A stretch of 64,000 nucleotides of DNA from Raillietiella orientalis (lineage: Eukaryota): the NCBI GenBank assembly GCA_036172245.1, contig JAYWIR010000002.1, positions 248,001 through 312,000 on the forward strand, in the 5' to 3' direction. A program made the translations under genes and the position numbers. A model generated the notes under the pieces. It worked only from the letters and a program-made list of their open reading frames with translations. It had not been told where the DNA came from and did no database searches. This document shows positions 13,519-61,320 of this stretch, one piece after another. Position 1 is the first letter of the stretch; every line of letters begins with the position of its first letter.

Positions 13519-13767
13519 GCGGCCGAGGGACGAATTGGTCGCAGCGGTTAATCTGCCGTGTCCACGGAAAATCGCGGCAGAGGCAGGTTCCAGGTGGGTA
13601 CAGGACTAAACGGTCGTCAAAGACTTCTTCGCGTCTCATTACCCGAGAAGGGGGCGTGTCTGCTCCCGAAGCGTGCCCGGCGATAGGCTACCGTTCGCGG
13701 GCGGCCGCGGGTTCATGTCTTCGGGCTGCTCTCTGGTTCCGGGCGATTTAAGGCCGCGCGCCTCGCG

Positions 13768-14509
13768 ATGGACGGAGCAGACGCAGCCTCGCCGCGACTC
13801 GGTCCGCGTCGCCGTCGTGGTGGTGGTGGCGGTGGTGGTGGTGGTGGCGGTGCCGGAGGCGGTGGTGAGACGATGCCCGCGAGCTACAAGGAAAGCAGGA
13901 AGGTGGGTTCTGCTCCGGGGGTTGCTGGCGAGAGCTGCAGGGGTCGATCTCTTCCAGGTTAGAAAGCCGCTCATGGAGAAGAAGAGGAGGGAGCGCATCA
14001 ACTCATGCCTGGAGAAGCTGAAGGAGATGCTGCTGGAGGGTGCCCTGCACCAGCGGGAGGTTGGCAGCGTTCCTCCTCTTCCTTTCTTTCCGACCACCTC
14101 CTCCCCCCCCCCTCTTCCGAAGGAAACAGGGGAGGAGGCAAACGGGTTCCGGTCCTTCCAGGTCAACAAGCCCGCCAAGCTGGAGAAGGCCGACATCCTG
14201 GAGATGACAGTACGCCACCTGCGCCTGGCTCCTCTCGTCGAGAAGAAGCACAGGTTCCACGAGGGCTTCCTGGAGTGCGCCCGCGTGGTGCGCCACTTCG
14301 CCTCCAAGCACCGGCTCCCCGAGTCCTTCACCGGACGGCTCCTGGAGCACCTGGATCGGTGCTCTTCCTCCATGGCGCGTCCCGAGTCCCGGAAGGTTTC
14401 TCCCTCGGCGCCTGATGCCGCCACCGCCGCCGCCGCGCGTTGCGGGTGCGCGGATGCGAACGCCACAAAGGGGAGCGACGAACTCGAGGTTGTGTGGAGG
14501 CCGTGGTGA
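13768..14509 (+). CDS. HES: HES / Hairy-Enhancer of split family bHLH-Orange-WRPW transcriptional repressor, ~194 aa; join(13768..13902,13958..14059,14162..14509)
   Basis: bHLH with the basic-region Pro: SRK|VRKPLMEKKRRERINSCLEKLKEML...KLEKADILEMTVRHLR. Orange domain: RFHEGFLECARVVRHF...RLLEHL. C-terminal Groucho-binding WRPW*. GT-AG introns of 55 and 102 nt sit at conserved HES positions. An alternative start exists at ATG 13873. Exact orthologue not assignable. Confidence 0.95.
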
Positions 14510-39477: not shown

Positions 39478-39529
39478 ATGAGAATCTTCTCCTCCGTGCT
39501 TCTGCTGAGTTGGATACCTCGTTTTCCAG
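39478..39529 (+). CDS. Receptor exon 1 (signal peptide MRIFSSVLLLSWIPRFP)
   Basis: caccATG start, hydrophobic core, and a CAG|GTAAGC donor in phase 1 matching the next exon. Confidence 0.65.
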
Positions 39530-42500
39530 GTAAGCGTCATGTGTGGAGAAGGGGCAGGGACCTGTGTTTTTTTTTTTGGAAGGGGAGGGGAGGGAGGAGG
39601 GATTGAGAGCCGCCGGTCCTCGGCATCCCCGCGCGGAGACGCGTAGAAGGTGGGCCGCCCTCAGGCGAGGCAGAGTTCACTTCGCGGCCGTCGGAGCGAG
39701 AGTTGTCGCAATGATGCAGCCAGAGAGAAGGTTGCGCCTCGACACAAGTGAGCGGGTGAAAAGCTGCGCCTCATCCGGATCCGGAGCTTCCCTCTTCCGG
39801 ACTGGCAGAACCGCGGGAGAGTGCAGCTCTGGCGTCTCCCCTTTTTGCGTGCGATTCCTCTCTTTGCGAGGGCTGAGAACACGGGTTCCGGGACGGCTTG
39901 GATTCCTCGCCGTTCCTTCGGGACATTGCGGGAGCGCGCTTCCGGGAGGTCCTCCTCTTGGCTAATCCTTCGCGTCAGAGCCGACGTGTGCCCTCTCCAA
40001 GAAAGCAGCGGTCAGGGCGAGTGCCTCTGCCGACGTCGCTCGGGATCGCGGTGGAGTTCTCTCGAAGGTGGAGGACCTCACGGGATGGCCTTTGGTTCTC
40101 CAAGTACTGAGGAACCGTTCACCTCCTCGAGAAGGTGGGAAATGAGGGTAGAGGAAGCTTTTTGACACCATCAATGCCATCCGAGGGTGCGCGTAACTCT
40201 TCAGGCTAGGGGGTACCCCGGGAGGGGAACATCCTGTGAATACAGAAAGGCTCCTAAGGAAGCAGTTCGTTCTCTTACGCTTAGTAGGGGAACGCCTCAG
40301 GGAACCACTCCTTATTCTCCCCGGAGACACCCCCCCGGAGGTGGATACATCACGTTCCTTTTCCAGAGGGAACCTGAAAAAGATCCGCTCCTCGAATTTC
40401 TACTCTGGAGGGAAGAAATTCAGCAGAGGATTCTTTGCGTGCCGACCACTCCTTTTTTCCTCCTCTGGGGGTCGCTTCCCGAAGGGAGCAGCAAGTTCTG
40501 GAGAAGCATCAATTAACCAGCTCCATGGTACGCGATGGAAGCGCCTCCCCCTCCAAAGGGAAAGGGGATGGCTCCATTGCACACCCGGTGGGAAATCCTA
40601 AAGGACTCCTTGATTCCTGGAAGAGCCCTGGGAGGTCGACTTCCAATCCTGTCCAGTCGACAGGGGCATCCGGGATTTCCGGCTGCTTCCATCAGTGCCA
40701 CACCTTAATTGGCCATCCAGCGTCATCCTGCGACTGGAGGAAGACTCGGAACTCACGACGCAACTCCCATTCCTCGGCGTTGATCCTTCCTCGAGTGGGA
40801 TTCGAAGCCGCAACGCTTGGTACCGCGTGCGGACACCGCAGCCACACGGCCGTCAACGCGGACCAAGCCTCTGTCTTTCAGGGATGCTGCATCCCAGTTG
40901 CGGCTAGCGGCGAATGCGGCTGTCTTGTAGGGAAGCCGCTCCGGGAGCATTCGGAACGGAATCGGAATCTGGGATGGACGCGTCCCTGGGAACGGAAAGA
41001 GGCACCGGTTTCGAATGGTCGGCGAGAATGGCGACCTTCCCTCTCTTTTAGCGTGGCCAAGCACCCCTTCAGCATGTAAGGGAGGTGGAGTAGGTTGTGG
41101 GGGCGGTCGCAGTCTGCGCCAAGCGGGGTTTCTTTGAGTGGACATGGGCGCGCGGCGGCGCTCCAAAGAGCGGTCCCTCAACCATTTGGAAGAAAGGAGT
41201 AGCACAAAAGAAGGTGCTCTCGCTCGTGATCCGTCTTCCTCCCCGTCTGCGGCCCGAGGGCATTCGGTGAGACCTCACACGCGCCGCTTCGCCTCGGCTG
41301 AAGTTCCAGGACCCCGGGCAGGGACAGTGTTGGCGACGTCGAGCCCGTCCTCCGTCCGGCGGGGACCGCGCCACTTGAGCTCCATCATGAAGTGGGGCGG
41401 GGATGCAGACGGGTTTCCTCGGGTAAAAGTGGTCTCGCGTCGCAATCCAGGGTGCAGGTCTCTTCCCTTCTTCCCGCGTAACCCGGATTCTCGATTTTTT
41501 CCCGCCAGCGTTCGGGGCGCGCGGGAAATGCGCGGATCAAAAACACTTGCGTGGAAAGGAGCCCTGACGGCCTCCTGTTTGCATGCGCCTCCTGGCCGGA
41601 CTTGCCCAAACAGCGCTGCGACCATCAGGAGGAGGAAGAGAGGGGGCGCAGGAGCCTTCTGAGGGAAGGAAAAAGAGGGAAGGGAAATGGAGGGGCAAAG
41701 GGATGCCCTGCGATGGCATGGAAAACAAGATGCAGATGACGGGAGGATTCCGAGACGGGAACTGCACGCGCTTCCCACCGGGAAGAGGCGCAACCGAGCT
41801 CCCGGTACGGCACGCCAAGAGTTCCGAACGAAAAAAGGTAACGGGGAGGGGTGTCGAAGAGATCTGACGCTGCGGCCGAGGGATAGAATTCGTTTGCGGA
41901 TGGGGTTGAGGGAGGACGACTCTCCGAAGGAATGCGAGATCCTGACCGAGTGGGGTGGATCTTCTCGCAGCCTCAGGACTCCTGCCTTGGCGAGGTTGGG
42001 AGGAGCAGGAGCTCCAGAGAGAAAAGGCACATCAAGGCGAGTCTCCTGCCGTGCTGACCATCCGCGCCTCCTTTCCGGGTTCCGAGGAGGCGGGTGGGGG
42101 TGGGGTCGGAAAACAGAGGGCGCTCCTGCGCTGCTACCGGAGAACGGAAGCTCCCGGGGCCCCCAGAAAGTCTTCCGGAAGGCAGAAACCGGCGTTTCGG
42201 GAACGGAGGCATCCGCTCGGCTTCAAGGGACTCTGATAGCCCCGGTCGGGCAGGTGAAGCGGCTCTCGACGTGCACTGTCCAATGGATGTCCCCGACAGG
42301 ACCAAAGGATGACCGCGTGGCTTCGGGACGGCGTGTCATCCAGAGAGCGGCCTGTCGCCCCGGTCGCAGCACCGGAAAGCCGCTACTTGCCGGGTGTCCA
42401 GGAGCTCCCGGAACGCGATCTGCCGGCTGCCTCTCGCTCGCGGCTCTCTCCAGCAAGTGGGTCGCGGGGTAGGCAACCGTGCGCATGGGTTCCCAATGCG

Positions 42501-45500
42501 GATCAGAAGGACACGAGAAGGGTTTCACGTTTGTCCGGTCGCGGATGCGGGAGGCCGTCCCGAGGCACCAGAAGCAGGGAGCAGGAGGAGGCCGGCCAAC
42601 TCGAGGGAACCAACTCGAGGCGGGAAGCGAACCTGATGCAGCGGGGCGAAGTGGTCGCCCACGGTGGGGAGGGCGCCACCTGCTCTCTCTCTCTTTCTCT
42701 CTCGCACGCATCCATCGGCAGGGGCGGAAGAGGAGGTGAGGATCCGGGGAGGGGGGAGAGGCAAACGCTGAGAAAAAGGTGCTCCCTCCTCTCTAGAGGC
42801 GTGCTCTCCGCTGCAGGGGTAGCTGTCCGCGAGATGCAGGGGATGGCGAGGTGCGTGGGGAAGAGGAAATTCCCAAGGAACAGGCAGAGTACCTCGGCAA
42901 AGCAGCGGCGTGCTGGAGGTGCCCAAACGTGGAGGTTCTTTCATGATCCAGGAAAATCTCCGAAGTGGTAGCTGAAGAGGAGGCGCAGAGGGTGGAAACT
43001 GCAATCACCTGATCGAGGCGTTCAAAGGTTTTCTGGCTACCAAGTTGACACCTGGTTCCAGAACGTGTTCCTGCTGTCTGTGTGACAGTCGTGGCGGCAG
43101 GAGTCCGTCTACGATGGGGACGATCTTCCGCATGGATGCGAGAAGAGCGGCACTCTCGAGGTTACGTCTTCAGGGGAACCTGGACGGATTGAGTGCTCAT
43201 CCTGGCGCCGGCTCCCAAGTCTCGGATCGGGTTTCGGGGAGCTGGAAGCGCTCTGCCTCCCTCCTCCCGCTTCTCATTTGCGTTTCCAAGACGACAGAGG
43301 GTAAAGGAAAGAAAGAATCTTCTTCCTTTCTCCTTTCCCACTTGGGAGGTTTTCCAAGTGAGCAGGGATGGGAGGTGCGGTGTACCTGGAAGAGGAATCA
43401 AGGAAGAGCGGTTGGTTTGACAGGAGACGCTCTGACGTCAGCACGAGGTGTTCTTCAGCTTGCCTTCTGCTGGTGATATGGGTCTTCGGCTCTCTAAGAA
43501 GAAGGGGAGAAAGGAAGCTCACCTGAAATTCCCCGGGAAGAACCAGCGAAGGAGGCGTCGGTTGGCACTCCCGATGACCCCGGACGGGAGCCGGAATTCC
43601 CGAAGAGCGTGAAGAGGCATCACGACGGCAAGCCTGGAGGTTCTTGCAGCTCTCAGCTCGTCGACACCATTTTCAACGGACGGTCCCCGTTGCTAGGAAC
43701 CTGCCTTCCCCCAAGTGCCTCTCGACGGCGCTGGAGGTCCCTCGTTCCCCGAAATGCATGCCCTCTCACTTTACGGGCACAGCGAGGGGGCTCACGCTTC
43801 TCTTCGCAAAGATCTGGGACTCGTCGGTGCTGCCCTCTACGACCTTGAGGAGCCCCTCAGCTTCCCAAGACCAGGTACGAGGCCTCTCCCTCCCCCTTTC
43901 GGAAGGCTTTTTACTAGCACATCTGGAGAGCTGGCAGTCTGGGGGCGGCAAGAACGCCCGTGCGCTTCTGGTGCGAGGCGGACGTGACGTTCGTACAGTA
44001 CCTCATCCGGAAGGCTGCAGGCGGGGAAGGCATAGCCATGCACACGATGCCGCAGATTCGGACCCGCTCTCACTTCCGTTTTCTTATCCCGGAATCATTC
44101 AGGCATCGGCAAACGTTTGCAATGGGGACGCGTGTTTTTTCTTCTTCAAGGAATGGGCGGGCGGGGCGGGCAGAGCAAGAGAGTGTGAAAGCTGATCTTC
44201 GCTCCCGATGCAGTCGCCGTAAAACATTGCGCTCCGAATCCCCTGACTGCCTCCTGTCAACAACCATGGTTGGTAGGAACCTCACTTCCGAAGGGAGAGC
44301 CCCTTCACCCCTGGGGGGGTCACGTTCTCCTTCCTCTTGACAGACCTGGAAGGAGTGCAAAACTCTCGAGGTTTGTGTCTCGTTCCGGAAAGGAGGAAAG
44401 CAGGAGGGGAGGGAAGCACATGGAGAGGGGAAGGAAAAGCAGTGCTGCACCGAGAGGCTCTCTGTTCCCTCCCCCACTACCAGGGAGCGGTAGAGTCGCA
44501 GTTCCACAATAGAGGGGAGCCACCTTCGGAGCCGCTGGTGCAAAGGGAGCTCACGACCCCGTCGCCACTGCCGCTGCCGGGTGGCCAGAGGTTCCATTCA
44601 AGAACAGAGAGGCGTCCTTTGGTTCCACGCGCCCGACTCTGTCCCACACGAGCTCGCACCGAGGGCAATCTTTGCTCCTGCTGAGCCCTCGGTCCGAATT
44701 CATGGGAGGAGAGGACGCTACTTTCGCTTCGCCTGGTAAGAAAGAGGAGGTGGGGAGGAGCATTGGGATGCGGACGGCGCCATGCTCCAAAGCGGAAGGG
44801 ACGCCGCTATTGTTTTTTGGACGCCGTCCGTGGAGGAAGTGGGACGGCTTCCTTCTTCCCTCCGGAGCCTTCCTTCCATGGACTGGGAACCATCCCTCCC
44901 CCTGGACACAGCATGGAATTTAGTGGCATCTAGGGGAGGATCCGAAAATGAGGAGGAGATGAGGGGAGGAGTCCACCCTCCGCTCTCTTCGCCCCACGTC
45001 TCTTTCGAAGGGCGTTGACCTGCTGCGAAAGTCAGCGGCAAGTCAGGGCGTTTCGCGCAGTGCTTTTGGAACCCCTCCGGCTGTCGACCACTCCTCGAGA
45101 GGGGAGGACGGCCGGACGATGGTCCGAGAGATCGCCTTGTCGCGAGAAGAAAGAGAACCAGCGCGGGCAGAGCTTCCCATAATTCCTTGCTTCCCTCAGG
45201 AAAGCAAACGTTCTGCCGTCACCCGGGGCTGCCCAAACACGGAGACTCGGATTCCCAGAAGACGGTGTTCCTCCCCGGAGAGATCGTGTCCTTCAGCTGT
45301 GATGAGGGATACAAGATGCTGGAGCCAGACAAGTTGGTGTGCCGCAGCGACGGGAGCTGGAACAAGAAGATCCCGTTCTGTGGTGAGCCCGCCTCTTTTG
45401 AACCTACGACTGGGACCGAGCTTCTTGCGCCTCAGCGCCAAAAGATTCCAACGCTCTCATGTCGATGCGCTTGTGCGGTGCTGGCAGACACGTGGAAAGT

Positions 45501-48500
45501 GGTGCATCCATAGATGCAGGTGCGTCCGTAGACGCCGATACACGTAGATGCCGTACGCGTTGGTATGTGTGGCTACGGTGGACTCTGGTCTATGTGGATG
45601 CAGGTGCGTCCTTAGACGTTGATACACGTGGGTGCGTAGACTCTGGAACACGTGGATGTTGATGTGAATTCTGATACCTATGCTGAACCTGCTGCAAGTA
45701 TATTGACGAGTGCTTTTTTTCTCAGTGCCTTTCTATTACATCTCTAACCATCTATCTCTCCATATGATGTAGGATCATTGGTATTCTTCGAGAGGATGCT
45801 CTCGAGATTTTCTGGTCTGAGACAGGCTGTGGTTTAGGGAGGAAAAGGTCAGGATGAATTCAGAGTCAGGAAATGCTGCTAGATTAGTGGAAGGGATGGG
45901 AATGAGGTGGAACATTTGCGTGTTTTTAGAGGTGGATGCTCAGCCCATCCTGTCCTTAGATAAGGGAAGGAAGTTGAGAGTAGTCCATCAGATGTGCAAG
46001 AAACCTTTACAAAACCAGCATCCAGAATCCTCTGGAGATGATGCTTTAACAATACACTGGTTCTTCTTCTAGTACTGTGGTTTATAAAACACGCATCCCC
46101 TTCGAAATTTTTGCGGGGCTCTCCATCTGCTACTTGAGAGGAGCTTTAGAGTAGGAGAGATCGTAAGAATTTCCATTTCATTCCCGGACCACGTGTGCTG
46201 ATTCCTTGTCTTCTTTCCGTCGCACCACTTTTTCTTCTTTCTTTAGGAATCTTTCAGATGACACGGACCTTAGTTGAGAAAGTGATAAATCTCTTCGCTG
46301 AAGGCTCTAATAAACCGGTCGCTCCAATCCAAGAAAAGGAGGGGGGGGGGGGATGAAAAGGGAAAGCTATGCGCTTGCGCGTGTGCGTGCGTGTGCGTGT
46401 GTTTGTTTTCCAAGGTGGTGTCATCTCGTTCAACGGATTCGGCCCTTGACAACTGCTTTTATCTTTTAAGTGTCCGAAGCCGGAATGCCTGGAAAATCGC
46501 TCGGGAGAGGCGTGGGCGAAGTCCCATGCAAAACAAACAAACAGACAAAAAAGCAAACTCCTGTTGGTTCAGGAAAGGCCGTTCACGAGATGTCTGTCCC
46601 GTAGCCATTATCGTATGCGAGCCAGGCTTGCGGTGCGGAAGACAATAACACGTCCGAAGTGATTATTACAGCTTTATGGGATCCGGAAAGGAATGGGAAC
46701 AAACCCTCAGGTGATGATTCCAAGCTGCATCTGAAAATAGCTGGAAATGATGAGCGCAAGTGTCCTGCCGCACGAGGCGTACGTGAGGGACAAATGTTCG
46801 ATTACATAGGGAAGCCCCCAAAAAGGGTCAATCCTGTTGTTTCGGTTTGAAAGAGACGGTCGTAACCAGCTTTAATGGACTCTGATGTACTCCGGCGTCT
46901 GCGTGTTTTCCTCCTGAACCGATAATTTCACTTGTCATGATCGACTTCCAAACAGCGTGGCTCACCTATTCAAATCCGGGAACAAGAAGAGAGGACCACT
47001 GAACGTGGACCGGGAAAATACCTTTTTGTCCATGCTGGTCCCGCTTAGGATGGGCTGAGAGTCAACACCTGTCGATTCATGCGTGGAGCATGGACACTGT
47101 CTGTCCCGTGTTGTTACGCAGGAAGTGCATCACTAGCACATGGTACACCGAGAAAGTGTTGTGTCGACCGGAGATTAGAAACAATACTTAGGTGAATCTT
47201 TGCTTACAGAAGGTCCTCTGGAGCTTGTCTTCAGGAAAATTCTCCTGAAATGAGGGATCGATTTCACCAAAGCAAAATGCGTGCTCACGTTATGAGCCAA
47301 TACCCATCGGAAGGGGCAGCGTTTCTGGGACAGCGGGAACAAAGTGTTCGGCACCTTCACGGATCGGCGACGTAGCTATTGGTATTGCGTATCTAGGCTT
47401 CCAAACCCGAATAGAGCATCAAGCGCTATCCACGAATCCAATCGGTTGGACGGTGCGCCCACCTTGAGAGTGTCAGGTGAGACCACAAGTTCGAGAGGAA
47501 AAGTTCAGCTCTTCAATAGGGCAATGAACAAGAAATCCCTTCCAGAATTTTCCCAAGAGCAGCTCTGGGAGAATCCACCCTCTGCTGTGATTGAACCGCA
47601 AGCAGAGTGTGGATTCTCTTATATTATCTTGCAGTGAGTGAGGTATAAACTTCTTCATCCGTTACTTTGAACCGGTCCTTTCCCGAATTCCACTCGGAAT
47701 CTCTTGACGCTTTCATTGAGCCGCTCTAGCAGCTAGTTTTACCGCCATGTGGATCCAGTCTTCATCCGCAACTGGATTTCTTTTCTCGGAAAATTACAGT
47801 CGGGAATTCCATCCCCGCTTAGCTTGCGAAGGATCCTCCTCCCCTCCATCTTTGGCCTGTCATCTTGATCAGCTGATCCTTGTATCCAGAAATCGCTCAC
47901 CTTTCCTGAATTCCCTGCCAGATCACAGAGCAGGCGCTGGCGGCAGCAAATTCGTGTTCACCACTCCCTGCTCCTGTCTAGGTTTGCTGTGCTCTAGAGT
48001 TCTTCTCGTGCAGCCAGCAGAACACTGCTGCTGAAAGATCCCTTATCGCACCGCGGGACGCTCCTCAAAACCGTGCGTGCTGACCCCTCTTCGACGATTC
48101 GAGCTGAGTTTCTGTGTATTCAAGTTGAGCGTTTACGTTGGTCACATCCGGAGGCTCCCAATTCGTGCGTCATCCAGGCAGCCACGTGCTCTGCGTGGAG
48201 ATCCTTGTGATGAGCCACACGGCATACGGGCATCCATCAGATCCTGGAGATTTCGAATCGGAACGACTCATCAAACAAGACTCGACTCCAAGGTCGACGC
48301 TTCGAGAAGCACACGTGTCAAAGGCGATTGGTTTCATTCCTGTGTTCTTTCACACGAACAGCTGTCCATCGTTGACCTGACGTCAGCCGAAACATTTGAT
48401 TTCGGGTAGCTGCCTCACGGTAACACCGAGAGCACAGTACATGTGTTTCCCATGGTTTCCGATGCTACCCGCATTCCATAAGAGGAGACGCTCTCACTTC

Positions 48501-51500
48501 TTCACGCTCTCGGCGTAGAAGGCACCGCGGACTTTCCAGGAATTTGCTCTGCTTGTTCCTGTGGTTCGGCTTGCGTTTGAATTCCCCGAAGCGCTTATCC
48601 TCTGCTGTTTCGCCTCACTTTCTCGTGATAGCGATTCACTTGGGCTCCGAAGGGAATGCGCCACGCCACGAAGGAATTGCGAAGCACTCGCATGTACATT
48701 CCAGTCACTGGAGTGATACCTTTTCATTTAGAGCAGTAAAGTTTCTTGATTCTTCCCCTTTGCTTCAGTCTGCCCCTTATTCTCTCATGATCAGCCTCCT
48801 TGATCCGTTGTGAACTGCAAAACCTCACAGAAGAACCCATGGACTCCAACAAGAATTAAGTACGAGTAGTTCTTCTTCATCACTGTGCACATATTATTAT
48901 TTTATTGGTCTAGGATGATAAAAGTCCTTTTGGCTTCTTCTGCTTTCCTTTGAACTTGTTTTTTGAGGGGGAGTTTGCCAAGTGCTGAAGAACCGTTCGC
49001 CTCCTTAGGGGGAGCTCACGAAGATCTTTAGACATTGTCCATGCCACCCGAGGGTGCATGTCACTCCTCAGTTGGAGGAGGGGGGTAACCATTTTATGAA
49101 TCCAAGAGGACTCCGGAGAAAGGATTTCGTTCCTCTTACTCTTGGGAGAGAATCCTGGAAGGAACCTCTTCCTTATTTTCTCCGGAGTGACTTCCAGAAG
49201 GCCCAGTCTTCATTTCTTCTTCGAATAGAAACCACAAGGAATCCTCCCCTGAATTTCTTCTCCGTAGGAACCTCCCGGAAAGGTTCAGCTCCTTATTTCC
49301 CCCTCCCCTGAAGAGAACCCCGAAGGGACGCTTCCCAATTCCTCTGAAGGGCTGCTTTCCGAAGGTAGCAGCGCACTTTTTCCGAGTGCCAGCATTGCAG
49401 AGTCAACGAATATACTCAATTTACGCATCAGCTGTATTTAATTTTATATATACAATTGAATACATAAAATGTTTACACAGGATAATTTTGTGCTTTGCCT
49501 TCAAAAGGGAGTTATCCAAATCATGTGGATCTTACCCATAACGACACACAAAATCCCTGTGCATACTTATATGAAATGACATGATGGAACTCGTTTCTGT
49601 TCAGCTGAAAGTGCCACATGTTGAACTTTGTGGTACCCATCCTCAATGGAACGTGTGTTTGTGTGTGTTTTAACAGTTTCACACGTTCATACTCCAAGAC
49701 TGTAGCGCTCCTCCCAGCTTAGTCTGAGTGCTGGTCATGTGGAGGTGGTAATTTTGAAGACACTCCCTAAGGTGAGTGTATACGTGCGTTAAGCGTATGT
49801 CGGTTTCATTATAGCATCCAATGCTTCAATCGTAAAGATCGAAGCATCGGATGGATATGTAAACATCACTGCCCTTCAGCCAAATGCACAGCGGCTTGCT
49901 GCCCGAGATTTTCCAAACGTCTCTCAAACTGGGAGATGTGTGTTTGGAGACAATAAGGATGCTCCTTTGCTGATAACGAATGAAACATCTCTTATTTCAC
50001 GGATTCTTTTCTGACAATTCATCTCCCTTCGTCCTTACGAATTTTTCTGCGAATCGTGGTTACCATTTTTTTTGTTCCTTATCGATGTGCACGAGGTTCT
50101 GTCCTGCCTCACCCTGTCCTGTGCTCAAAGGTCCTCTACAGATAGAAAGAATCTTCACATGACGCAGTCGTCCACAGCATTGAGCTGGAAATATTTTTAT
50201 TCCTTGATTCATCTGTCCGGTTCCGTTCTTTTTCATTTTTCCTCGATTCATTCTTCCCTCGAGTCGCCCTAATAGTTCTTCAGGTAACAACATTCCTCCT
50301 AACCAGCTCTCACCTTGAAAGATGGCTCTTCACCTCATCTTCTTCAGCAGGAATCGCGGGAGGAGGGCATTGCGAGCAATGGTGTTTCCATGCTTCCTTC
50401 TGGGAATTCTCTGCTCCAAGTGCGGCGCTTTTCGAAAGCAGAGAGCACCTCGGAGTGGCCATGAGGTGAGCTCTCCCAAGTCCTGACTGTAGCCAATGTT
50501 TGTCGAGTCTGATCTGAACTGCACTCTCTCTTTCCTATCATCATGTGATTCTTGCTCACCGTCCGATGGTCGCGGAATCTGAATTTCATTCCTCTCAGAA
50601 AGCTCCCTTCCAGGATTGGACTAGACGAGAACGCAGTCCCGAAGTCTCTGTTCAGAATCATCTTTCTGGAACTCTTTCCAGGCGAAAACCTCGTCTACAG
50701 GAAGATTTCGTCTCAGTCCGGCACCCTGAAGAAATACGACTCGAGCTTAGCGATAGACGGAGATTCTCGGACGTGCAGCTACACGGACGCAGCGTCCCCT
50801 AGCCGCTGGTGGAAGGTGGAGCTGGGAAAAACGTACAACGTGACTTCTCTAGTGTTCTCCTCCAGCCCAGGTACCCTCACTGCTCCCAACAACCCTGATC
50901 GGTGCAAGGAACGCTTTCGCTCTCAGGGACCCAGCAACGGTTCACAGTCTACCTGCTGGCTATCCAGGAGGACGGCAAGGAGAAACGGAACCTTTGTGTC
51001 TCCTACAGGAAACTGAGCCTGCACGATTTTTCCCCCTTCACTACTCTGAAGTGTAACCGTGGATACGGAGCAATCGGCCACACGCTTTACATCGTGGACG
51101 ACCGCGATGGATTCCATTACTTCAGCTTATGCGAAGTGGAAGTGTACTCTTTCCCAGGTACGCTCATGATGCTGGATAATTCTTCTCATAAGCTTCCTGC
51201 TCCATGAGGAGATCCCCGCGTTCGTCTTTCGGTCCAGCAGCTAAGAGATCCCCAACTATAAAGACATCGCATAAAGAGCAAGCGTGACGCACCTTGCTTG
51301 CGGGCTTGCATTGCACTCGACTCCTCCCTCTCCCTTCAGGGGCTTTTTGATCTTCGGTCTGCGGAATCAAATGGACTCAATGTTGTCCGTTGGACTTTCG
51401 GATCGAAAATGAAAATTTGGGACGGACATGAGCCGCATGTTTAGAGAAGATTCGACTGGGATTTCCTCCAGTCAAATCTCCCCATCCCCTCCAAGACTTG

Positions 51501-54500
51501 AGAAATCGGCTTGCGCATGCACCCACAGGGATGATGCCCCACTTCCTCAGCAAGGAGGAACAATGACAAAGTCAACAAGGAAGGCAGAAACAGCCGACAA
51601 ATGCAGTTATTTCTCTCCGAACTGTCCAGCCAAGGAGACTTTCCATTGGAAACTCATAGGGAAGAAAGTCTGCTCTGATGGCGAAGAGGCAAGAGAAACA
51701 GGGACTCTTCTGACGCAGATGATTCTCTTTATATCTTGCGCTGTAGTCACAGAAGGCATATCACTGAAAGGAAAAAAAAAACACTGGAACTCGGAGGCAC
51801 ATGAAGAGCACCACAGACCCGCCGAAGCATTAGAAAAAGACAATTGAGAAAAGCTGATCAGGAAGAGGATGAGTTCCACGGATATTCCCGGAGTCTCCGA
51901 GTGGGAGTTGCTTGGCGCTGAAAAAACCCCCTCGGCACCTTGGGGTCGACGGGATCTCGACAAGCTCCCACTCGAAAGGAGGATTAATGGAGCACATCCC
52001 TGAGTCGCAGTCCATATTCAAAGGTCGACTCAAGGGGATGGGAAAGACCGCTTCCACTTCAGATCAGGGGTTGCCACAGATCGTGATCAATCCTTGCATG
52101 AGCGCTGAGCGTTCCACACCTTGAGCGTTCCACCGGCAGCCATTAACTCTTTGCCAGAGAAATCGTGCAGGCAGGTTGCGCAGTGCGAATGCTGGATGAC
52201 AACGCACCTCGGCATTTCCTGAAATCCCCCTGACTCAGCAGGGATTCTAGAAACCGAGAAGCCTGCTAGTGGCTACACTAAAGTCAACTAGTCAGGAGCC
52301 GGAACAAAGAGCAAATGTTCCCAGCATCTGTATCGAATCCTGGATCACAAAGAAAGTGGGATATAGCAAAATGCAAAGATTGCCCATGAAACCAAAGAGC
52401 CTTTTATTCAGATGACAAGAAGAAAAGAAAAGAAACGAGGTGATGATGAATTTGGCGAAAGAGAAGTTCCACCTTGTTTTAGGACGTAGCTATGGTATCC
52501 AAGCTCTTTTCAATGCGCGGCGGTAATACCATCAGATGCTGCAATGGGGTACCAAGTTAACAGATGATCCTAGACTGGATAGTACATTCCTCATTATCTA
52601 CAAGGACTCAAAGCACTATCTTTTGGGTATTTTAATTTCCGCTCAACCTCCGCGGAGAAACAAGACAAGGACGCAGCTGAACCACAGAATGCTTTGATTA
52701 CTGATTCCACGATATTCATCATCATCACATGGCGAAGAGACAACTCGCCGTCCAGCCTACTCTGGAGCCGAGTGTTCATCCGTTTCCATTCCTTCCCAGC
52801 GCAGCTAGCAGTGCCACAAACATGGACCTCTCTCTGCTACCCTACACCTTCCCTTCTTGGTTTGTTTCTGGTGGGAAATTTTGCTTCTTCCTGTGAGTTG
52901 ACTCTTTCTGTCCTGATTCCCGGCAACGAATCTTGGATGGCAGCAAGACCGATCTAAAAGAATGTCCTCACTTCCCTCTGGTCCTTCCACCTAAGATGTT
53001 CTGAAGAGCTGAGCAGCTTCTTGAGCTTCTTGCAATGCATTTTTCTGTTGCCAGCGTCTTCTTCCAAAGCTGCTGCTCTAGGGAGCTGAGAGTGGAACTG
53101 CTTCTCGAATCTTCCATCTTCCTGCGCTTCTTCCCGATCCACTTTGCGCTATGTCCCCATCCTACCCACGCGTGGCGAGCCAATCTGCTTCCGACCGATT
53201 CTTCTTTGGCTTCCGGCTGATTCGCGGTAGAGAATTTTGTGGATCGGGCTAGGCTTCCAAGCAAAGAGGAGAAAGCTTCCTCCCGCTTCGAAATCTCAAT
53301 GCTGGGATTAGGGTATATTCCCTGGTTGCAGCGTTTTCATTCTGACATCAGCTCACCGCATGAACGTGACCCAGGGGAGCAAAAGAAAGGTAGCGTATTC
53401 TTGGATAAGCGCATGGAGACTCCAGAACCGTCGAGGAACAGGAAGGAGACGAGCTCATCCTCTCAACAGGAGCAGCAAGATTCTTCTACAGAAGTGATGG
53501 GAACCAAGAGGAATTCTTGGGAAAAAAGGGAGAGGAGCAAATGCATACGGAAGCCGCGGTTGGGCGACAACTCCTTTGTTTCCGAAAGAGAGTGGGGGAT
53601 GATCCAGGGGTGATGCTTTCTGTGCCTTTCTTCCGTCCTCATCAAAAGCAAACGAAATGCAAGGAGAATAAACGCGTCTTCCTTTCTAGAAGTATTCCTC
53701 TGTGCTTACCCGAACGCCCCTCCTCAAGGAGCTGTCACGGTCGACAACAAAATCGCGTCCTACCGGTGCGAGCCCGGATACTCCCTCGAAGGAAACCCTG
53801 AACGATTCTGCATGGATTCGGGAAGATGGACGGGCAGCACTCCTACATGCACAGGTAGAGGCGCACCTGGCACACGCTGTCTCCATCTCGGCTTTCGTCC
53901 ATCCCAGTGATCCGCTGCCCTCCACCGGACGGCCTTCCCGGGGGGAAGTTTTCAGTATTCCCTGCTTCCGAAGGCAGGTCGGGGCACCTTCCAGGAACGG
54001 TCGTGAGGTACTCTTGCTTCCCTGAGTCGGTCATCGTTGGGAGCAGGGAGAGGAGATGCGACGGCTCTGGTTTCTGGACGGGGATGTCGCCTCGGTGCAT
54101 GAGTCCTCAGCCAACCTTCCTTGCCGGATCTTCCCCGTCAGAGTACCGCTGCAACCCGCCGCCGCACGTTCCAAATGCCGACGTGGAGGTCGCAGGGCAC
54201 GCAGCGTACTACCGTTGCAAGCCAGGATACGCCATGCGGGAAGGTGAGCGGCCAACGACTCCTGCGGCCCACCTCTCGCGGTGCTCTTCTCCTTCAGGTT
54301 CCAACTCCACCTCGTTGCACGTCAGTGTCTGTCGGGCCAACGCTACGTGGACTGACATTTCCGTGATCTGCTCACCTACAGGAGGATTTCACCAGTGTAG
54401 CGGAGTCTCTTCCTCGATCGCAGCGATCTCTGGGGGTCTTTTGATCGCACTTCTGGTACTCGTCCTCATCTTGTTGATCTACACGCTTTACAGGTGAGTG

Positions 54501-57500
54501 CCAAGGAAAGGCCGTGATCAGTTTTCGGTATGAAGGGAGATCGGGGTGGCGAAGATGTGTCCCGAGATAAAGTACAGCCAAGGGCCATGGTTGAGATGGA
54601 GGTGGGGAAATCGATGAAGGCGTTTGGAACTCTGACGGAGAGGATGCGGTGTTGGCCGCAAGTCACGAGGGTAGGGAAATGGGTCGAGGTGCGTGCCTTG
54701 TGGGAGTTCCGGGAATAACCTTTGGCGCTCCTCTTGGATGTCGCGTTCGATACATCATCCTCAACGTTCGGATCCAAGCAGAAGGATCTTAGGAATTGTC
54801 CTTGCTACGTGTAGAGCCACGACGGGTCTCTGTAGACATTTCTCTCCCTTTTATCCAACCAACTTTCTTCTCTCCAGCTTCTGCTTCTCCCGGAATTTCC
54901 GGCGATCAACATTTAAAAGAAAAAAAAAAACATGTTGCTGACGCCAAACTCGGAAAGAATAACTCCATGCAACCCCCCAGACGGTCTTTTGCGTTCAGGA
55001 AGCAGAGGTGGTCTAGGGTGCTGAAGCTCACTGACGTGGTTGGATCATACCCCTGAGGACACGATCGTCCACTGGAAAACTGAGTAGAAGGAAACTCTTT
55101 CGGAAACGGCTAGAGGGGAGCGATTTGCCGCTGGCGCAATCCAGTCAGACCCTTGCTTCCGACCCGCTCTTGGGCTAGGCAGCTCCATAAAAAAAAAAAA
55201 ACACCTTCAGGCCACCTGCCATCCTGACTTTGGCCCGTTTTCATCACGCATGAAATGAACTTTGGTCTGCGTCCTGCCTGAACGCAGACCTTCCTTCCAA
55301 ATGCCTTCCGTTTCCGGTGTACCGACGCGTCGGCGGTTCTCTCGTGATGCAGATGAATAGCGCTGGAGCATCACTTGTTGCGTTTCAAAAAACGCGTGCC
55401 AGCAATAAGTCCCTATCCTTTGTTTTCCCACCGGACACTGCGATCCTCTTCTTCCGTCTGGGTAAATCCAACGAGTCTTCCTCCTTCTTCCAAGTATGCA
55501 ACGAGCAACACTTGCCGATTCATCTTTCCACATGATTTCCATCTTGCTGCCTTGTTTCCTATCGTCTTTAAAGTTTTACCAGCCTCGTCTGTACACAATG
55601 TTCGGATTCTTGGGTCTCGGTGACTTCGAGGAATGCCCACTCCGGTGATTTTGGCATGTTCACGGGGGAAGACGGATGTCTCGTTGATTAAGCTGCTAAG
55701 AGTTGGGAATGGACTCTTCGATGTCCTTACCAGGAACACGAGGACTGGTTTTCTTCACATGCGCCTTGGGCGCATGACCTTGGAAGAGATTTGCGAGCTT
55801 CCAAGTGGAGGAGTCTCCGAGTCACTCCGATGCACCCACGAAGTTGAGCAGCAAGTTCTTGAGTATTTGGAGAACCGAAAACGAGAAAAACCGTGAAAAG
55901 GTGCTGATGGAAAGCAGAAAAATGGATTAGCATTCCATCATCATAGGGATTCCGTCCACCAGCCCAAGGTCAAGCTATTAAGATAAAGACCCACTGAATA
56001 GAAGACGAAAACAATGAACTCGATGGAACCATGTCACGATGAAAAGAAAGAGTATCGGAAATGGCTTAGTGAGACCTCGAAGAGGCGGTGCTCCAATAAT
56101 ATTTGGAATTTCATGCTTCCTCCATTTTGTCACGTTCACCCCCTGATTTATTAAGAGCGCATCTGATTTTCATGCAATCAAGACAAAGAGGTCTTAGTAG
56201 TTCTCTTGTGATGGACGTGAATAATGCTGGAGCATCACGTGCTGCATTTCGAAATGGACCAGCATGATAAAAGTCAATGCAAAGGAGGGTGGCAGCAAAT
56301 CTAACTCAGCCAGCTCTTGAGTCGAATAGGTCAAGTTTAAGGCTGAGAGACGGGGAAATTGCGTGAGAAAATTGTGCGCTGTTTCGTCATCGTACCTTCG
56401 AGGAACTTCGGTTTCTGCACACCTTAGGAGTGCTGCAAGCTGTCATCCAACAGTGCCCTTTCATGTTCCATTCCGACATCGGTCACACTAATGCTGTTTG
56501 CCCTACCTTCCGTTGCCTGACAGGGTGCTTCCCTCTCCTGCACAGGATTTCGACTCGTGGTCACCAGGAGTACTCATTTTGGATTCTTCGGTTTTGAGAG
56601 AGAGGTCGTAGGAAGATCCCCTACTTGCACCGACTCCAGGGACGCTAATTAGGAGCTCTCTCGCGATTTGCTCTTTCTCGGCTGGCGACTCAGCCCCCAG
56701 CGTACGCCACGCTTGCGGTAGCCATGACGGCTCCTTGGAATGGCTCTGATGTTTGAAGTGAATGGTATCATAAGGGTCAAAACCGCAAGCTAAAGAAACA
56801 CCATGACCGCACACACTGCTGTAAAGAAACCGAATTACCAAAAAAAAAAATGCTAAAGTCGATCACACGTAATTTCGTAACAATTTCATTTAAAAATTCC
56901 ATTCATAGATTCAATACGACTTTTTGAATTCCGATGTTCACCTCTTCCAGAACCACGGAAATAAAAACCGGCGTGTAAAGACGCGTTCCTCATTTCCTTC
57001 TGCTGCTAGCAGGAGATTACAGCGGTTCGGAACGAACGAATAAATGAACAAAATGTCCCGTAGATGCGCAAACGGGAAGGGAAAAAAAATTTCCACGATC
57101 ACCCTTTTTCCTGATCGAGCGAATCCACTTTGATGTCGATCCCAGTTTGGAAGAGAGCGCTTGCTCAGGCTAACCTTGCGTTTCCTTGACGACTCATCCT
57201 GCAAACTCCGGGGCGGGAAATTCGAAGCAAGAATATAAAAAATTATGTCAGGAGATGCAGATGTGTTCTGGGATCACAAGACAGTGATGCTGTTTCAGGC
57301 TCAAGATGCAATCCAAAAATGCTCCATCTGCAGTGGCCAGGAGCCGCGCCAACGGGAGCTGCGATAGAAGGGGATGCTCGGCGGATGAGAAGCCTTCGAA
57401 AGCCGACTTGGGCAGAGCTGTGTATGACGAATGCTACTTCACGGAAACGCTGTACGAGACCGTCTGTCCCATCACCAGCGCCTACGTACGAAACGAACTG

Positions 57501-57653
57501 TTTCCCGGGCCTCCGGAACCTTTGCAGAAGAGAGACAATACGGAGCAGTCGAAATCTACGGGCACGCCTTTCACGTACAGCATCCCCGAACCATCTGGTC
57601 CTTTGTATGCAACCATCGACAAGTCCAAGCGTAAGAAAGAAGAAAACGTTTAA
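39478..57653 (+). CDS. Type I transmembrane sushi/CCP + F-type-lectin-like (FTP, F5/8C fold) receptor, ~555 aa, related in architecture to furrowed/CG9095; join(39478..39529,45200..45382,50682..50870,50927..51157,53690..53854,53908..54102,54142..54243,54298..54493,57299..57653)
   Basis: Phase-1 symmetric exons encode four CCP domains (e.g. FCRHPGLPKHG...SFSCDEGY...CRSDGSWNKKIPFC) and an FTP domain (NL...SSQSGT...LAIDGD..TCSYT...WWKVELG...LCEVEVY). These are followed by a TM (IAAISGGLLIALLVLVLILLIYTLY) and a phase-2 join to a Tyr-rich tail. The joined frame is open to TAA 57651-57653. Confidence 0.85.
40151..40863 (-). mobile_element. tRNA-derived SINE-like element, copy B (in receptor intron 1)
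   Basis: The reverse complement carries the head ggccgtgtgg...ggtaccaagcgttgcggcttcgaatccc and a body collinear with copy A (e.g. cttacgcttagtaggggaac). Confidence 0.75.
41979..42908 (+). repeat. ~930-bp direct repeat, copy 2 (in receptor intron 1)
   Basis: Near-identical to 25627-26555. Confidence 0.95.
45200..45382 (+). CDS. Receptor exon: CCP/sushi domain 1
   Basis: Four-Cys plus Trp sushi pattern; ccctcag acceptor and gtgagc donor, phase 1-1. Confidence 0.92.
45500..45700. repeat. Degenerate minisatellite with GTRGAY cores (~16-18-nt units)
   Basis: gatgcaggtgcgtcc-tagacg--gatacacgt occurs twice ~83 nt apart, plus related units. Confidence 0.7.
49020..49385 (-). mobile_element. tRNA-derived SINE-like element, copy C (3' part only)
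   Basis: gccacccgagggtgc...ttcgttcctcttac...gaaccccgaagggacgcttcc matches the bodies of copies A, B and D. Confidence 0.65.
50682..51157 (+). CDS. Receptor exons encoding the FTP/F-type lectin-like domain (50682-50870, 50927-51157)
   Basis: AIDG, WWxVxLG and LCEVEV motifs; 56-nt GT-AG intron. Confidence 0.9.
53690..54493 (+). CDS. Receptor exons encoding CCP 2-4 and the transmembrane helix
   Basis: Three sushi patterns (YRCEPGYSLEG..RFCMDSGRWTGSTPTC etc.) and a long hydrophobic helix, ending at TAC AG|GTGAGT. Confidence 0.9.
57299..57653 (+). CDS. Receptor last exon: cytoplasmic tail with tyrosine motifs
   Basis: The gtttcag acceptor is in phase 2 and continues YR-LKMQSK...; motifs VYDEC, TLYETV, TYSIP, PLYATIDKSK and C-terminal ENV*. 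Confidence 0.72.
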
Positions 57654-59000
57654 TTGTGGACACACCATCGCGCTTCGAAGCTGACGTCCCCCAACCTTGA
57701 GCACTTCCAGGCACGCCGCGTTTACCGGGATCGCGTTCGATTACGGACTCGAAGAAAATCCACGAAGGAACTTGTCGAAAGGGGTGACCCATGCTTCCTG
57801 GGAGAGATGCAACATCCACTCGCTGCCTCAGAGTTGGGAATTTCGGACCGGATTCCACTCTTGCGTGCGGGGAGATGAACTTCGGGGAGCCTCCCTTCAC
57901 GGAATCCAAACTCCCCAAAATTCTCGTGGCGAGAAACCGACATTTGTTTCTTGGGTAGCTTCTGGTCCCATGCATGTAGCTGGTCAGGAAATCGGTGGCA
58001 TGCTGGGTGAAGACCAACCCAACTGTCCATCCGGACGGACACACCCGCCAGTGTGGCACGCTGCGTTCTTCGAATAAACCAGATGCTGGTGATCAGCTGA
58101 AAGCCTTACCTTACCGCCGCCCTCGGGAGGAACCAGCGGCTTCAATTCCTCCGAGAAGGGCAGCATCGTGATCCGTGGGCATCCTAGCAAAAGGATAGAC
58201 GTCCAGAAAGGCACGTCATCCTGCCTCGCACCTGGGGAATCGCGGCGACCGGAAAGGCTCCGCTTGGGGGCTCGCGCGCCAACTCTTTAACATGTGCGCA
58301 CCACGATGTTTCCCTCTGTCAGTAGACGAACACCTCCGTCGCTTTACTGCGTGGCAGAGGGCGCGCGCTTCGTACGCCACCACCATGGCGAGTGATTCAA
58401 ACCGTTCCTCCCTTCGAGAGAGAGAAACCAAAGTCATCTTCCGGGCTCTGAAACGTTTATCAGCTGTGAAACTGAGCAGACATGTTTGCATAAGAAGGAG
58501 ACATGGGGGTGCAGAAAAATTCAGGAGGAGAATCCCCACGCCTTTTCAGCCTGCCACTTCTCTTCCTCTCTCGCTTTGCCGTCAAGAGGCTCCTTTATTT
58601 CACCTGATCACGACAGGATGTTTCTTGTAAAAAAATATTCATAAAAAAAACAGTACACAAAATATAAAAAGTATCTTTTCCCTTCGTAGTGGTTCCACAT
58701 CACCACTACGAATGGAGGTGCCTCGGAGGCGCTGCTTCTCGTGAGCAGCTTTCTGATGAGGTTTGCACCGGAGGAGTGCGGAAGGGGGTAAACAAAATGG
58801 GAAAACACACAAAAGTTCAGTTCCAAAAATGCTGGGAGGGAAGGGATTACGAATTTCTTCCTGGCTTCCTCAGCATCCTCTAGAGGATTCTGGCAACGTC
58901 TTCCTATTGTTGGCAGAGATGCTGACCATCTCGTCGCCTTCCTCATGAAGAAGCAGACTACTGCCGTTCGACGCGACTCCTCGTCGCCACGATCACACGA

Positions 59001-59282: not shown

Positions 59283-59899
59283 CTCAGGAGAACAGCACAA
59301 TCCAACAACAGGTGCGGGGAGGTTTCCCGTTCTCCACCCCTTCCTGGAACAGTCTGGGACCGCACTACCCCTCGCCCACTGGTGGACTCGTGCGTTGCAT
59401 GGGATTGTCTAGTGCAACAGCTGCAATGCCGAGTCCTGCCACTTCAGAGAAAGCGTAGAGCTATCCACAAACACTGGGGGAATTTCGATGTACTGTAGGG
59501 AAATCGCAAAAAGCTCCATCCAGAGAAGAATTCCTTTTGGGATGGTGGCGGGGGTGCATGCGTCAGCCAGTTGACGTGTCCATCCCACCTTTTTTTCTGC
59601 GATTCTGCGATGTCCTGCAAAATCGCGGGAAATGCATCGCTGTTTCCGCCCTGACGTACGGTGTCCAGCGTGGCTGCAAGTGGGGTGTTTCAGGTGGTCT
59701 TCCTTGGATATTCCATGATTTCCTGCAACGAGCAGAGGGCGTAGTCCGGTTGCTCAGGAGGGCAACACAATCCAACAACAGGTGCGGGGAGGTTTCCTGT
59801 TTCCCGAATCTGGCATAGTCTGGAGTCGCACTGTTCCTCGTCCAGTGCGTTGTATGGGATCACCCAGTGCAACAACTGCAGTGCCAAGTCCTGCCACTT
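59283..59899 (+). repeat. Local diverged duplication (~150-160 bp; 59283-59445 and 59753-59899)
   Basis: Both copies share cacaatccaacaacaggtgcggggaggtttcc...gtgcaaca-ctgca-tgcc-agtcctgccactt. Confidence 0.85.
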
Positions 59900-60224
59900 T
59901 TGGGCAAGTGTTTCAAGAGGTTCCTTTCATTTCGGGTAGGGACCCATCCGAACCTTCCAGTGCACATGCAAGAGGTCCTGCATGCTTGAGCGCCCCATTT
60001 CTTTCCTGACGTGCCCCACCCGTTCCTTGAAAATTTCCAGTTCCTCCCGTGGCTTCCTCGCTGGCCGATTCCCGTGGTCTCATAGTTCACCGCGTACTTG
60101 CAGGGGGAGGCTCTTTGAAGTGGATCCGCGCTCTCAAGGGCAAAAAGGACGTCAGCTACGGACCACTTTCCTAGCCACGGTACTGATCAAAATCCCGAGC
60201 GCCGAAATCTCGAGGTCACAAAAA

Positions 60225-60655
60225 ATAAGATACATGTGTATTATACATAATAATATGTATGTACATTTAGGTATGGATTAATATACAAATTTATCTTAAT
60301 ATGCATATTAATAATATTAAGATTTTAAGCACATATATTTATTAACATATGCATTGAATATTAAAAATTAAAAACATGTTTATCTTATATATTAATGTAT
60401 ATATTTATACACACAATAAATACATGTTAATTGAATGTATAAATATCGAATTCTAAAAAATAAATAATGGTGGTAATTAAAAAAGTGGAAAAAATACATA
60501 TAATAACCATATATATTTATTTTTATAACGAATGCATTAATATGTTAATATATATTAGTAAACATACTAATAATATGTATTTTAATAAATATTAATAAAC
60601 ACTAGTGTTAAAATAAATTTGTATATCAATATATATAACAAGCACGCATTTATTT
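60225..60655. repeat. Extremely AT-rich low-complexity (TA/TAA/TAT) tract
   Basis: Abrupt compositional switch relative to the GC-rich flanks. Confidence 0.85.
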
Positions 60656-60659
60656 GTTA

Positions 60660-61320
60660 CGAGTTTTCGGGACTTGTACAACTGTCCTAGCCATCCTGTT
60701 GGCTACGTGGATCTTCTTGATTGACCAGGCAACAGATCTTATAACAATTGCTCTTACAGCCGCGGGCACTCCTTTGCAGGAGAAGGGGGAGGTCAAGCTT
60801 CAACACTTGCTCCCCTTCCTCTCTGCCTTGCCTCTTCCAAGGCTGCAGATGAATACTCGAAGGGAGACATTCATAATGAGTTCCTTCCCTACTCTCTGGA
60901 GCACCAGGTCCGGCTTTGGCTGCCCGTTTGGTTCCGGGATGGTCTGGCCGGAGGTCACCAACTCCCAGGATCTCAGCGCGGGCTTCCTGATTTGGGTCAC
61001 CCACCTCTTCACGCCTACCCATGGTCGTGCCCTGGTTACGGATGCACCCGTTTGGGATGTGACCAGGGATTTCTCTTGCGTTCCACATCTCCTGCATAGA
61101 CTACCTGAGCTGTCCCTGGAGGAGCAACGTCGGCTCACAGGAGGGAGGTCGGGTCGCGCCTCACGAAACCAACGAGTAGGCCACCTCCCTCTGAACAGAA
61201 AATGCCCAGAGAGGGGACGCTGTTCCACTTGGGATGCGCTCTTCCCGCGATCCGATCACGCTGCCTGGCCACTGAGCCTCTACTTGGCTCCAGGCGATTT
61301 TCTTCCCCATGACTGCTGAG
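60660..61320 (-). mobile_element. Relic 3' end of an RLE-type (R2/R4/NeSL-like) non-LTR retrotransposon
   Basis: Frameshifted CCHC knuckle (LCRRCGTQE / GHIPNGC), upstream PTR motif, and restriction-like endonuclease motif KPDLVL...V...K.SK. The relic may extend to ~61900. Confidence 0.72.

Follow-up and report, generated by a model that had tools for sequence, protein, structure and literature searches.

The window analysed here is a 64,000-nucleotide stretch of Raillietiella orientalis DNA (contig JAYWIR010000002.1, G000:C2:248001-312000, from a 210 Mb genome in 491 contigs), and it carries at 39478-57653 on its forward strand a gene for a predicted membrane receptor. The product comprises a signal peptide, a complement control protein (CCP, or Sushi) domain, an F-type lectin fold (FTP) domain, three further CCPs, a transmembrane segment (TM) and a cytoplasmic tail of 118 residues. 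The interpretation favoured, to which a probability of about one half is assigned, is that this is a single-copy, fast-diverged and lectin-less contact receptor of the furrowed/CG9095 type, which would bind protein and, following phosphorylation by Src-family kinases, dock SH2 proteins. What appears to be new is a version of the furrowed/CG9095-like layout that lacks the C-type lectin (CTL) domain, not a new class of immune receptor. A first-pass annotation, made from the sequence alone, had proposed the same domain order and had noted the absence of a CTL exon between 51158 and 53689, and both observations are borne out by the analyses described below.

The predicted exons (Table 1) were joined by script and gave a single open frame of 555 amino acids from nine exons and eight GT-AG introns, extending from the A of an ATG in good context (ctcaccATG) to the final base of a TAA. 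The first seven introns, which include all of those within the ectodomain, are phase 1, and the eighth is phase 2. As a predicted model, the nine-exon gene is therewith confirmed as real and intact. Two short introns, at 54103-54141 (39 nt) and 54244-54297 (54 nt), preserve the reading frame and may stay in the transcript, the former then yielding a protein of 568 amino acids. A caveat at the 5′ end of the model is the shortness of the signal peptide (best 11-residue hydropathy 2.2) and its joining to the remainder across a 5.7-kb intron.

The join between ectodomain and tail received particular scrutiny. On a crude score trained on 20 paralogue introns, the tail acceptor at 57299 rates 1.8 bits, the weakest of the eight (the other seven range from 2.8 to 11.3 bits), and of the 227 AGs 3′ of the TM exon at least 15 reach 6.0 or higher. 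Were the last intron retained, a stop would follow two codons after the TM (Tyr-Arg-stop). It could feasibly be, then, that the ectodomain goes without this tail in all or some transcripts, and that the main transcript is short-tailed as a result of intron retention or use of another acceptor; a frame at 55000-55053 has a basic start and coding-like codon use (codon bias 0.187), as would befit such an ending, although with 18 codons it is too short for judgement. The possible short alternative last exon that contains it spans 54999-55056 on the forward strand. However, the synonymous codon bias of the tail frame (0.087) exceeds that of all 1722 overlapping non-coding windows (maximum 0.079; the windows are not independent), its codon use resembles that of the other exons, and its GC content at third codon positions is 0.63 against an intron GC of 0.49, such that the frame looks coding. 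Additionally, it fits the phase-2 donor, the alternative acceptors at 57341 (six tyrosines kept) and 57479 (three kept) enter the same frame, and no other gene upstream requires exon 9. A predominantly short-tailed product is accordingly considered very unlikely.

Pfam analysis of six pieces of the gene identified Sushi domains in exons 2 and 5 and in the exon 6-8 frame (E 4.4e-11, two stretches), and F5_F8_type_C_2 in exon 3 (E 1e-6), with no family for exon 4 or the tail. A CCP profile applied to the joined model returned four domains (E 1e-15, 1.8e-16, 2.3e-13 and 3.6e-7), and the count of CCPs is taken as four. A CTL profile built from 14 furrowed-type proteins and run over six frames recovered four of four CTL exons in two paralogues elsewhere in the genome but nothing in the gene itself, the sole match in the window (6.6 bits, E 0.44) being on the minus strand at approximately 6.2 kb, far from the gene. 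The ectodomain has an odd number of cysteines, 21, leaving one unpaired; the extra residue, Cys406 (codon 54396-54398), is in the stalk, and suggests that the receptor may form a disulfide-linked dimer. The TM has no Asp, Glu, Lys or Arg, i.e. the charged residue by which receptors of the activating immunoreceptor type pair with adaptors is absent.

The FTP domain is present at full length, since a profile built from 33 other FTP domains, with the window protein left out, aligned with the joined model from position 2 to 140 of 142 (55 bits). Exon 4 alone matched this profile with E 6e-4, and exon 3 matched the striped bass lectin FBP32 (3cqo) with E 6.5e-5. In the ESM Atlas, the feature scores of exon 4 were 0.97 with unnamed clusters and 0.90 with a cluster of F5/8 type C. 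A Kelch identity for exon 4, offered by matches in the PDB (best E 5e-4), was rejected in that the FTP profile, the cysteine pattern and the exon context fit better, and an AlphaFold model of the first half of the domain was discarded (pLDDT 45.5). Motif definitions for F-type lectins were taken from PMC5712786 (papers are cited here by accession). The calcium motif h2DGx is present as AIDGD (aa 102-106). The fucose motif HX24RXDX4(R/K) is lacking: the histidine of 3cqo and of eel agglutinin (1k12) aligns to Tyr112, a Ser/Pro run stands in place of the RxD segment and the vicinal cysteines, and only Arg146 is left of the three binding residues. Fucose binding is therefore unlikely, although another ligand is possible, and the loss of two residues of the triad argues against canonical glycan pattern recognition. 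The same alignment shows the fucose histidine to be absent from furrowed FTPs also, and two triad residues are reported to be replaced in CG9095 (PMC5712786). The domain thus shares with canonical F-type lectins the fold signature, the h2DGx motif, two core disulfides and a mid-domain intron, and differs from them in the missing histidine and first arginine, and in being part of a membrane-anchored mosaic as opposed to a soluble lectin.

Next, the relationship of the gene to furrowed and CG9095 was examined. Profile searches of the genome, which provide lower bounds, placed PF22633 at no fewer than 4 loci (6 candidates) and Sushi at no fewer than 35 (46 candidates). Among these is a furrowed orthologue (G000:C6, ~2238551-2269879; L013-L016), in which CCP-FTP-CTL is followed by ten more CCPs, making 11 in all, a TM and a tail that ends as in insect furrowed; its FTP falls within the furrowed clade and groups with insect furrowed (support 89/78), a placement indicative of a pancrustacean. 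A second locus (G000:C32, ~1162989-1177706; L009-L010) encodes CCP-FTP-CTL, three CCPs, a stalk and a TM, and is labelled CG9095-type by architecture, there being no named CG9095 protein among the matches or aligned sequences. Since genes of both types are found elsewhere in the genome, the window gene is, on sequence comparison, a third gene and an orthologue of neither, and a plain orthologue of a characterised family, which the first-pass annotation had allowed for as its refutation, is, as far as these two families go, not what was found. Its tail and FTP exons match only themselves in the genome and its CCP exons have no close second copy; the gene is apparently single-copy.

Several features point to common descent with these two genes nonetheless. 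The domain order is that of CG9095 (one plus three CCPs) minus the CTL and stalk, with CCP1 abutting the FTP as in both paralogues. When CCP1 itself was scored against other CCPs, the mean was 95.5 for 38 matches to pre-FTP CCPs (35 furrowed-type proteins), 61.8 for the remaining 332 furrowed CCPs and 69.3 for 2412 CCPs taken from other proteins. Within the genome, and leaving itself aside, it is most similar to the CCP1 of the CG9095-type gene, at a score of 116 that only 7 of those 2412 CCPs reach. The two genes also share an unsplit CCP1 exon, a two-exon FTP with a degenerate fucose triad, a single TM and a phase-2 intron after it, whereas the window gene lacks the CTL and the long stalk, its FTP is 23% identical and its tail is unrelated. 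With furrowed (Drosophila fw, Tribolium TcCTL15 and the C6 gene) it shares the CCP-FTP cassette, a phase-1 intron after the FTP, a single TM and a tail of ~100-120 residues with several tyrosine motifs; it differs in having no CTL, four CCPs rather than 11 (PMC9954269 for TcCTL15), an FTP that is 24-29% identical and has no vicinal cysteines, and a tail without the VTxNGxAV end. In the C6 gene, phase-1 introns follow the FTP and lie at the mapped CTL boundaries, so that loss of the CTL can keep the frame.

Phylogenetic analysis of the FTP was less decisive, and here the evidence runs partly counter to a family origin. In an approximately unbiased (AU) test on 17 FTP rows (LG+G4), a clade of the window FTP with furrowed and CG9095 was not rejected (p 0.128), but pairing with the CG9095-type gene alone nearly was (p 0.058). 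Both this tree and a second of 34 rows put the window FTP outside the family, on a long branch and with no support; it is the longest branch of the larger tree, and the furrowed clade (97/98 and 100/99), which includes the C6 gene, excludes it. Of the phylogeny against furrowed and CG9095 that had been envisaged at the outset, then, exclusion from the furrowed clade is clear, and membership of the wider family is unrejected but unsupported in the trees. Identity of the window FTP to furrowed/CG9095 FTPs (23-29%) scarcely differs from that to unrelated FTPs (19-30%), CCP2-4 have no ordered match to their CG9095-type counterparts, and the intron after the FTP is phase 0 in the CG9095-type gene and phase 1 in the window gene. 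Nor is the mid-FTP intron specific to the family, as it is common also to another gene of the genome (G000:C39, ~1924850-1927284; L023:2850-5284, forward strand), which has at least three degenerate CCP-like exons, a terminal FTP and a stop, and is probably secreted. The FTP of that gene is very divergent, with a phase-1 mid-domain intron and a first exon that matches only itself in the genome.

These observations invite the explanation that the gene was assembled independently by shuffling of phase-1 CCP and FTP exons, converging on the CG9095 layout while still yielding an SH2-docking contact receptor. The uniform phase 1 of the ectodomain introns would suit such an origin, as would an FTP about equally far from all those sampled and ungrouped with furrowed/CG9095, the C39 gene as a second divergent CCP-FTP mosaic, and the CCP and FTP mosaics described in sea urchin, sea anemone and amphioxus (PMC5712786). 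Against it stand the specific closeness of CCP1 to the CCP that precedes the FTP in furrowed and CG9095, and the failure of the AU test to reject the family clade. Independent assembly is on this basis regarded as rather doubtful, and common descent with furrowed/CG9095 as, on balance, the likelier origin.

Searches for relatives beyond the genome returned no orthologue, albeit by searches of low sensitivity that used single exons and considered listed matches only. Neither the CCP3-TM frame (2585 candidates) nor the first FTP exon (32 candidates) drew a significant match in word-indexed searches, which is weak evidence. Among the best 150 of 711 matches listed, an exhaustive search with the CCP3-TM frame recovered proteins with multiple CCPs at 27-42% identity, and a search with the FTP profile recovered mostly tandem fucolectins and furrowed (best 120 of 710, CTL-less forms being possible among the other 590). 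Among 268 proteins compared, none has the architecture of the window gene; 48 have both FTP and CCP, and the four of these without a furrowed-type CTL are two short CCP-FTP pieces and two large mosaics with REJ domains. Metagenome scans revealed no relative of the second FTP exon, and none of 49 FTP loci had a CCP. The suggestion that the architecture was undescribed holds to the extent that no account of a CTL-less CCP-FTP receptor with three further CCPs and a TM was found in the literature, as covered at abstract level beyond the papers cited here, and without the survey of FTP architectures by Bishnoi et al. or the primary furrowed paper.

The tail contains six tyrosines, Tyr480 (VYDE), Tyr484, Tyr490 (TLYETV), Tyr500, Tyr531 (YSIP) and Tyr541 (PLYATI). 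Immunoreceptor tyrosine-based activation motifs (ITAMs) consist of two YxxL/I sequences, and none, by this consensus, is found in its 118 residues. YATI would suit SHP2/Corkscrew at +1 and +3, and YETV and YSIP would suit kinases or adaptors. The inhibitory consensus (ITIM), (S/I/V/L)xYxx(I/V/L), is likewise without a match in the tail, although TLYETV (57447-57464) conforms to the switch motif (ITSM) pattern TxYxx(V/I) (consensus sequences from PMC12151841). In 20000 shuffles of the tail an ITSM arose in 3.2% and either motif in 19%. Two [ILV]Yxx[LIV] sites occurred together in 0.22% of the same shuffles, and P[ILV]YAx[VIL], which describes PLYATI (57600-57617), in 0.054% of 50000; both patterns were picked post hoc, and their low rates suggest that the tail has real docking sites. 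An EPIYA-type reading of PLYATI, for which no source was found, was not used, and an ESM Atlas search with the tail gave no usable match.

Similar motifs are widespread in furrowed tails. From 41 furrowed-type proteins, five without a detectable TM were dropped, and in the remaining 36, which are related sequences whose counts are not independent, [ILV]Yxx[ILV] was present in 25 tails, four or more tyrosines in 15, P[ILV]YAx[VIL] in 16 and [ILVM]YEx[VIL] in 10; an ITIM or ITSM pattern was present in three, and an ITSM in two. The motifs are conserved by lineage, with IYENI and YDAP in insects and PIYANV in chelicerates, and the furrowed tail of this genome has five tyrosines, including those in IYDYV, YHEP and PYENV. 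The 138-residue tail of the CG9095-type gene, with a His run, has seven, none in [ILV]Yxx[ILV]. Alignment of the window tail with five furrowed/CG9095 tails was not significant, 163-721 of 1000 shuffles reaching the observed scores, which tells against the family reading; an apparent likeness to the furrowed tail of the same genome was dismissed as the one reached by 721. The window tail would therefore resemble furrowed tails in kind, with no homology implied. Because it lacks ITIMs and ITAMs, because an ITSM arises in 3.2% of shuffles, and because furrowed tails carry like motifs, nothing in its sequence marks the tail out as that of an immunoreceptor. The first-pass interpretation is partly borne out, as to the architecture and the missing CTL, but not as to an immunoreceptor character of the tail.

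The tail motifs could also be accommodated by a haemocyte immunoreceptor whose ectodomain reads a self marker or a TEP/C3-like deposit and whose TLYETV and LYATI act together, as the two sites of PD-1 do, to bring in Corkscrew/SHP2 or Csk and so restrain attack on self. The one ITSM match, the YATI that forms the core of the SHP-2-binding site of PD-1 (PMC12151841), the rarity in shuffles of two such sites together (a post-hoc pattern), the fast divergence from paralogues and the possible disulfide dimer are consistent with this, and there is precedent in the Src42A/Shark/Corkscrew signalling of Draper (PMC8092387) and in sushi-containing ITIM receptors of Botryllus (PMC12582321). However, the tail has no consensus ITIM or ITAM, YATI lacks the residues preferred by SHP-2 at -2 and +5, a point that weighs on the favoured interpretation too, and the Glu at +1 of YETV is outside that preference (PMC12151841). 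The two sites are 51 residues apart compared with 25 in PD-1, the same motif types are found in furrowed tails, and the gene is a single copy with neighbours (MRPS22, a hairy-type bHLH gene and a tRNA-modifying enzyme) that are not its paralogues. The Botryllus fester co-receptors (FcoR) and Drosophila Draper are functional analogues only, in that both are type I receptors of invertebrates and carry tyrosine docking motifs: FcoR shares a sushi domain but belongs to an Ig-based, polymorphic multigene family with canonical ITIMs or hemITAMs in some members (PMC12582321), and Draper is EGF-based with ITAM and ITIM motifs, neither of which the window gene has. A haemocyte immunoreceptor is judged unlikely, and the more elaborate proposal that a furrowed-like adhesion gene became, in a crustacean-type arthropod, a disulfide-linked, inhibitory self-sensing haemocyte receptor, with a complement-regulator-like CCP/pseudo-lectin ectodomain that reads self surfaces or TEP/C3 deposits and the PD-1-like pair recruiting Corkscrew/SHP2 or Csk, more unlikely still; if true, the latter would represent a checkpoint-type receptor with CCP and F-lectin folds as its scaffold, as opposed to Ig or C-type lectin domains.

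Under the favoured interpretation, that of a lectin-less furrowed/CG9095-type contact receptor, the CTL was lost, or never gained, in the lineage of the window gene, and the product would be a type I membrane protein whose ectodomain forms a short CCP-FTP-CCP-CCP-CCP rod, perhaps linked as two chains through Cys406. The ectodomain would bind a protein partner, not fucose, on a neighbouring cell or the matrix via CCP and FTP surfaces. Ligand binding would then cluster the receptor, a Src-family kinase would phosphorylate Tyr480, Tyr490 and Tyr541, and the phosphorylated tail would dock SH2 proteins that relay the contact signal; a Src42A, Shark and Corkscrew module exists in arthropods (PMC8092387). 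The receptor would most likely act where furrowed does, at contacts between epithelial, neural or sensory-organ cells. Furrowed stabilises Frizzled and mediates homophilic adhesion (PMC4229721, PMC5144966), for which the second of its CCPs is reportedly responsible (PMC9954269). Immune roles, exercised through the CTL, are reported for Tribolium furrowed (PMC9954269), so that membership of the family does not exclude immunity; an immune role for the window gene is possible but unsupported. Hence, of the recognition or adhesion function proposed in the first-pass annotation, adhesion or contact signalling is supported better than self/non-self sensing, for which the degenerate fucose site and the single copy, as opposed to a diversified cluster, offer less.

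No other CCP, FTP or CTL exons were detected by profile in the window, 10 kb upstream or 20 kb downstream. Pfam (four hits, in three of 33 frames) identified the neighbours upstream of the receptor (Table 1). GC content within window positions 1-44000 is 33-43% at 2-10 kb and climbs to 59-69% at 12-26 kb, before dropping to ~48-52% in the 3′ half of the receptor gene; similarly abrupt shifts occur at the C39 and C79 loci. Downstream of the gene, a diverged direct repeat pair of ~150 bases each (~59290-59445 and ~59755-59900) was noted by eye, and a very AT-rich island of ~430 bases (~60225-60660) lies amid 50% GC DNA; a longer AT-rich island lies in an intron of the CG9095-type gene (L009 ~2620-3930). 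The C79 locus (G000:C79:272755-273536; L022) was rejected as a paralogue, being a different gene, probably of the mesh/SUSD2 type, with one CCP before the TM. Two adjoining frames with similar TM sequences follow its single CCP exon and are probably alternative TM exons.

Table 1. Predicted features of the receptor gene and its neighbours (window positions unless prefixed by a locus).
Feature	Position	Strand	Remarks
Exon 1	39478-39529	+	ATG and putative signal peptide (aa 1-17); donor CAG/GTAAGC, phase 1 (slash marks the splice site); link to exon 2 inferred
Exon 2	45200-45382	+	CCP1, aa 23-78; four Cys, conserved Trp; Pfam Sushi E 8.8e-13
Exon 3	50682-50870	+	FTP first half; retains AIDGD, has Tyr112 in place of the fucose His, lacks RxD and vicinal CC
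Exon 4	50927-51157	+	FTP second half; Cys165, Cys184, Cys210 (in LCEV); Arg146 of fucose triad kept
Intron	51158-53689	+	2.5 kb, phase 1; place of CTL exons in furrowed/CG9095; no CTL remnant detected
Exon 5	53690-53854	+	CCP2; Pfam Sushi E 1.9e-10
Exon 6	53908-54102	+	CCP3; Pfam Sushi and CCP profile
Exon 7	54142-54243	+	CCP4 first half; preceded by 39-nt in-frame intron, perhaps retained
Exon 8	54298-54493	+	CCP4 end, short stalk with Cys406, uncharged TM (aa ~413-437), phase-2 donor
Exon 9	57299-57653	+	118-aa cytoplasmic tail, ends -ENV
Putative poly(A) signal	58073-58078	+	Candidate; first AATAAA past stop
MRPS22 exon	6851-7213	+	Pfam
bHLH-Orange (hairy/E(spl)-type) gene	13610-14509	+	Pfam
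tRNA methyltransferase-family exon	L020:3343-3909	-	Pfam

Were the receptor to prove haemocyte-specific and coupled to SHP2, it would add a new scaffold to the invertebrate inhibitory receptors, a case of which the present evidence falls short. As matters stand, its significance lies with furrowed and CG9095, the known arthropod CCP-FTP membrane proteins, in which the role of the FTP is described as open (PMC5712786), and in which the lineage-conserved tyrosine motifs of furrowed tails point to a signalling side that goes undiscussed in those parts of the furrowed literature examined. A natural version of this layout that has no CTL and a fucose-dead FTP would offer a ready-made deletion test of the parts that are needed for adhesion.

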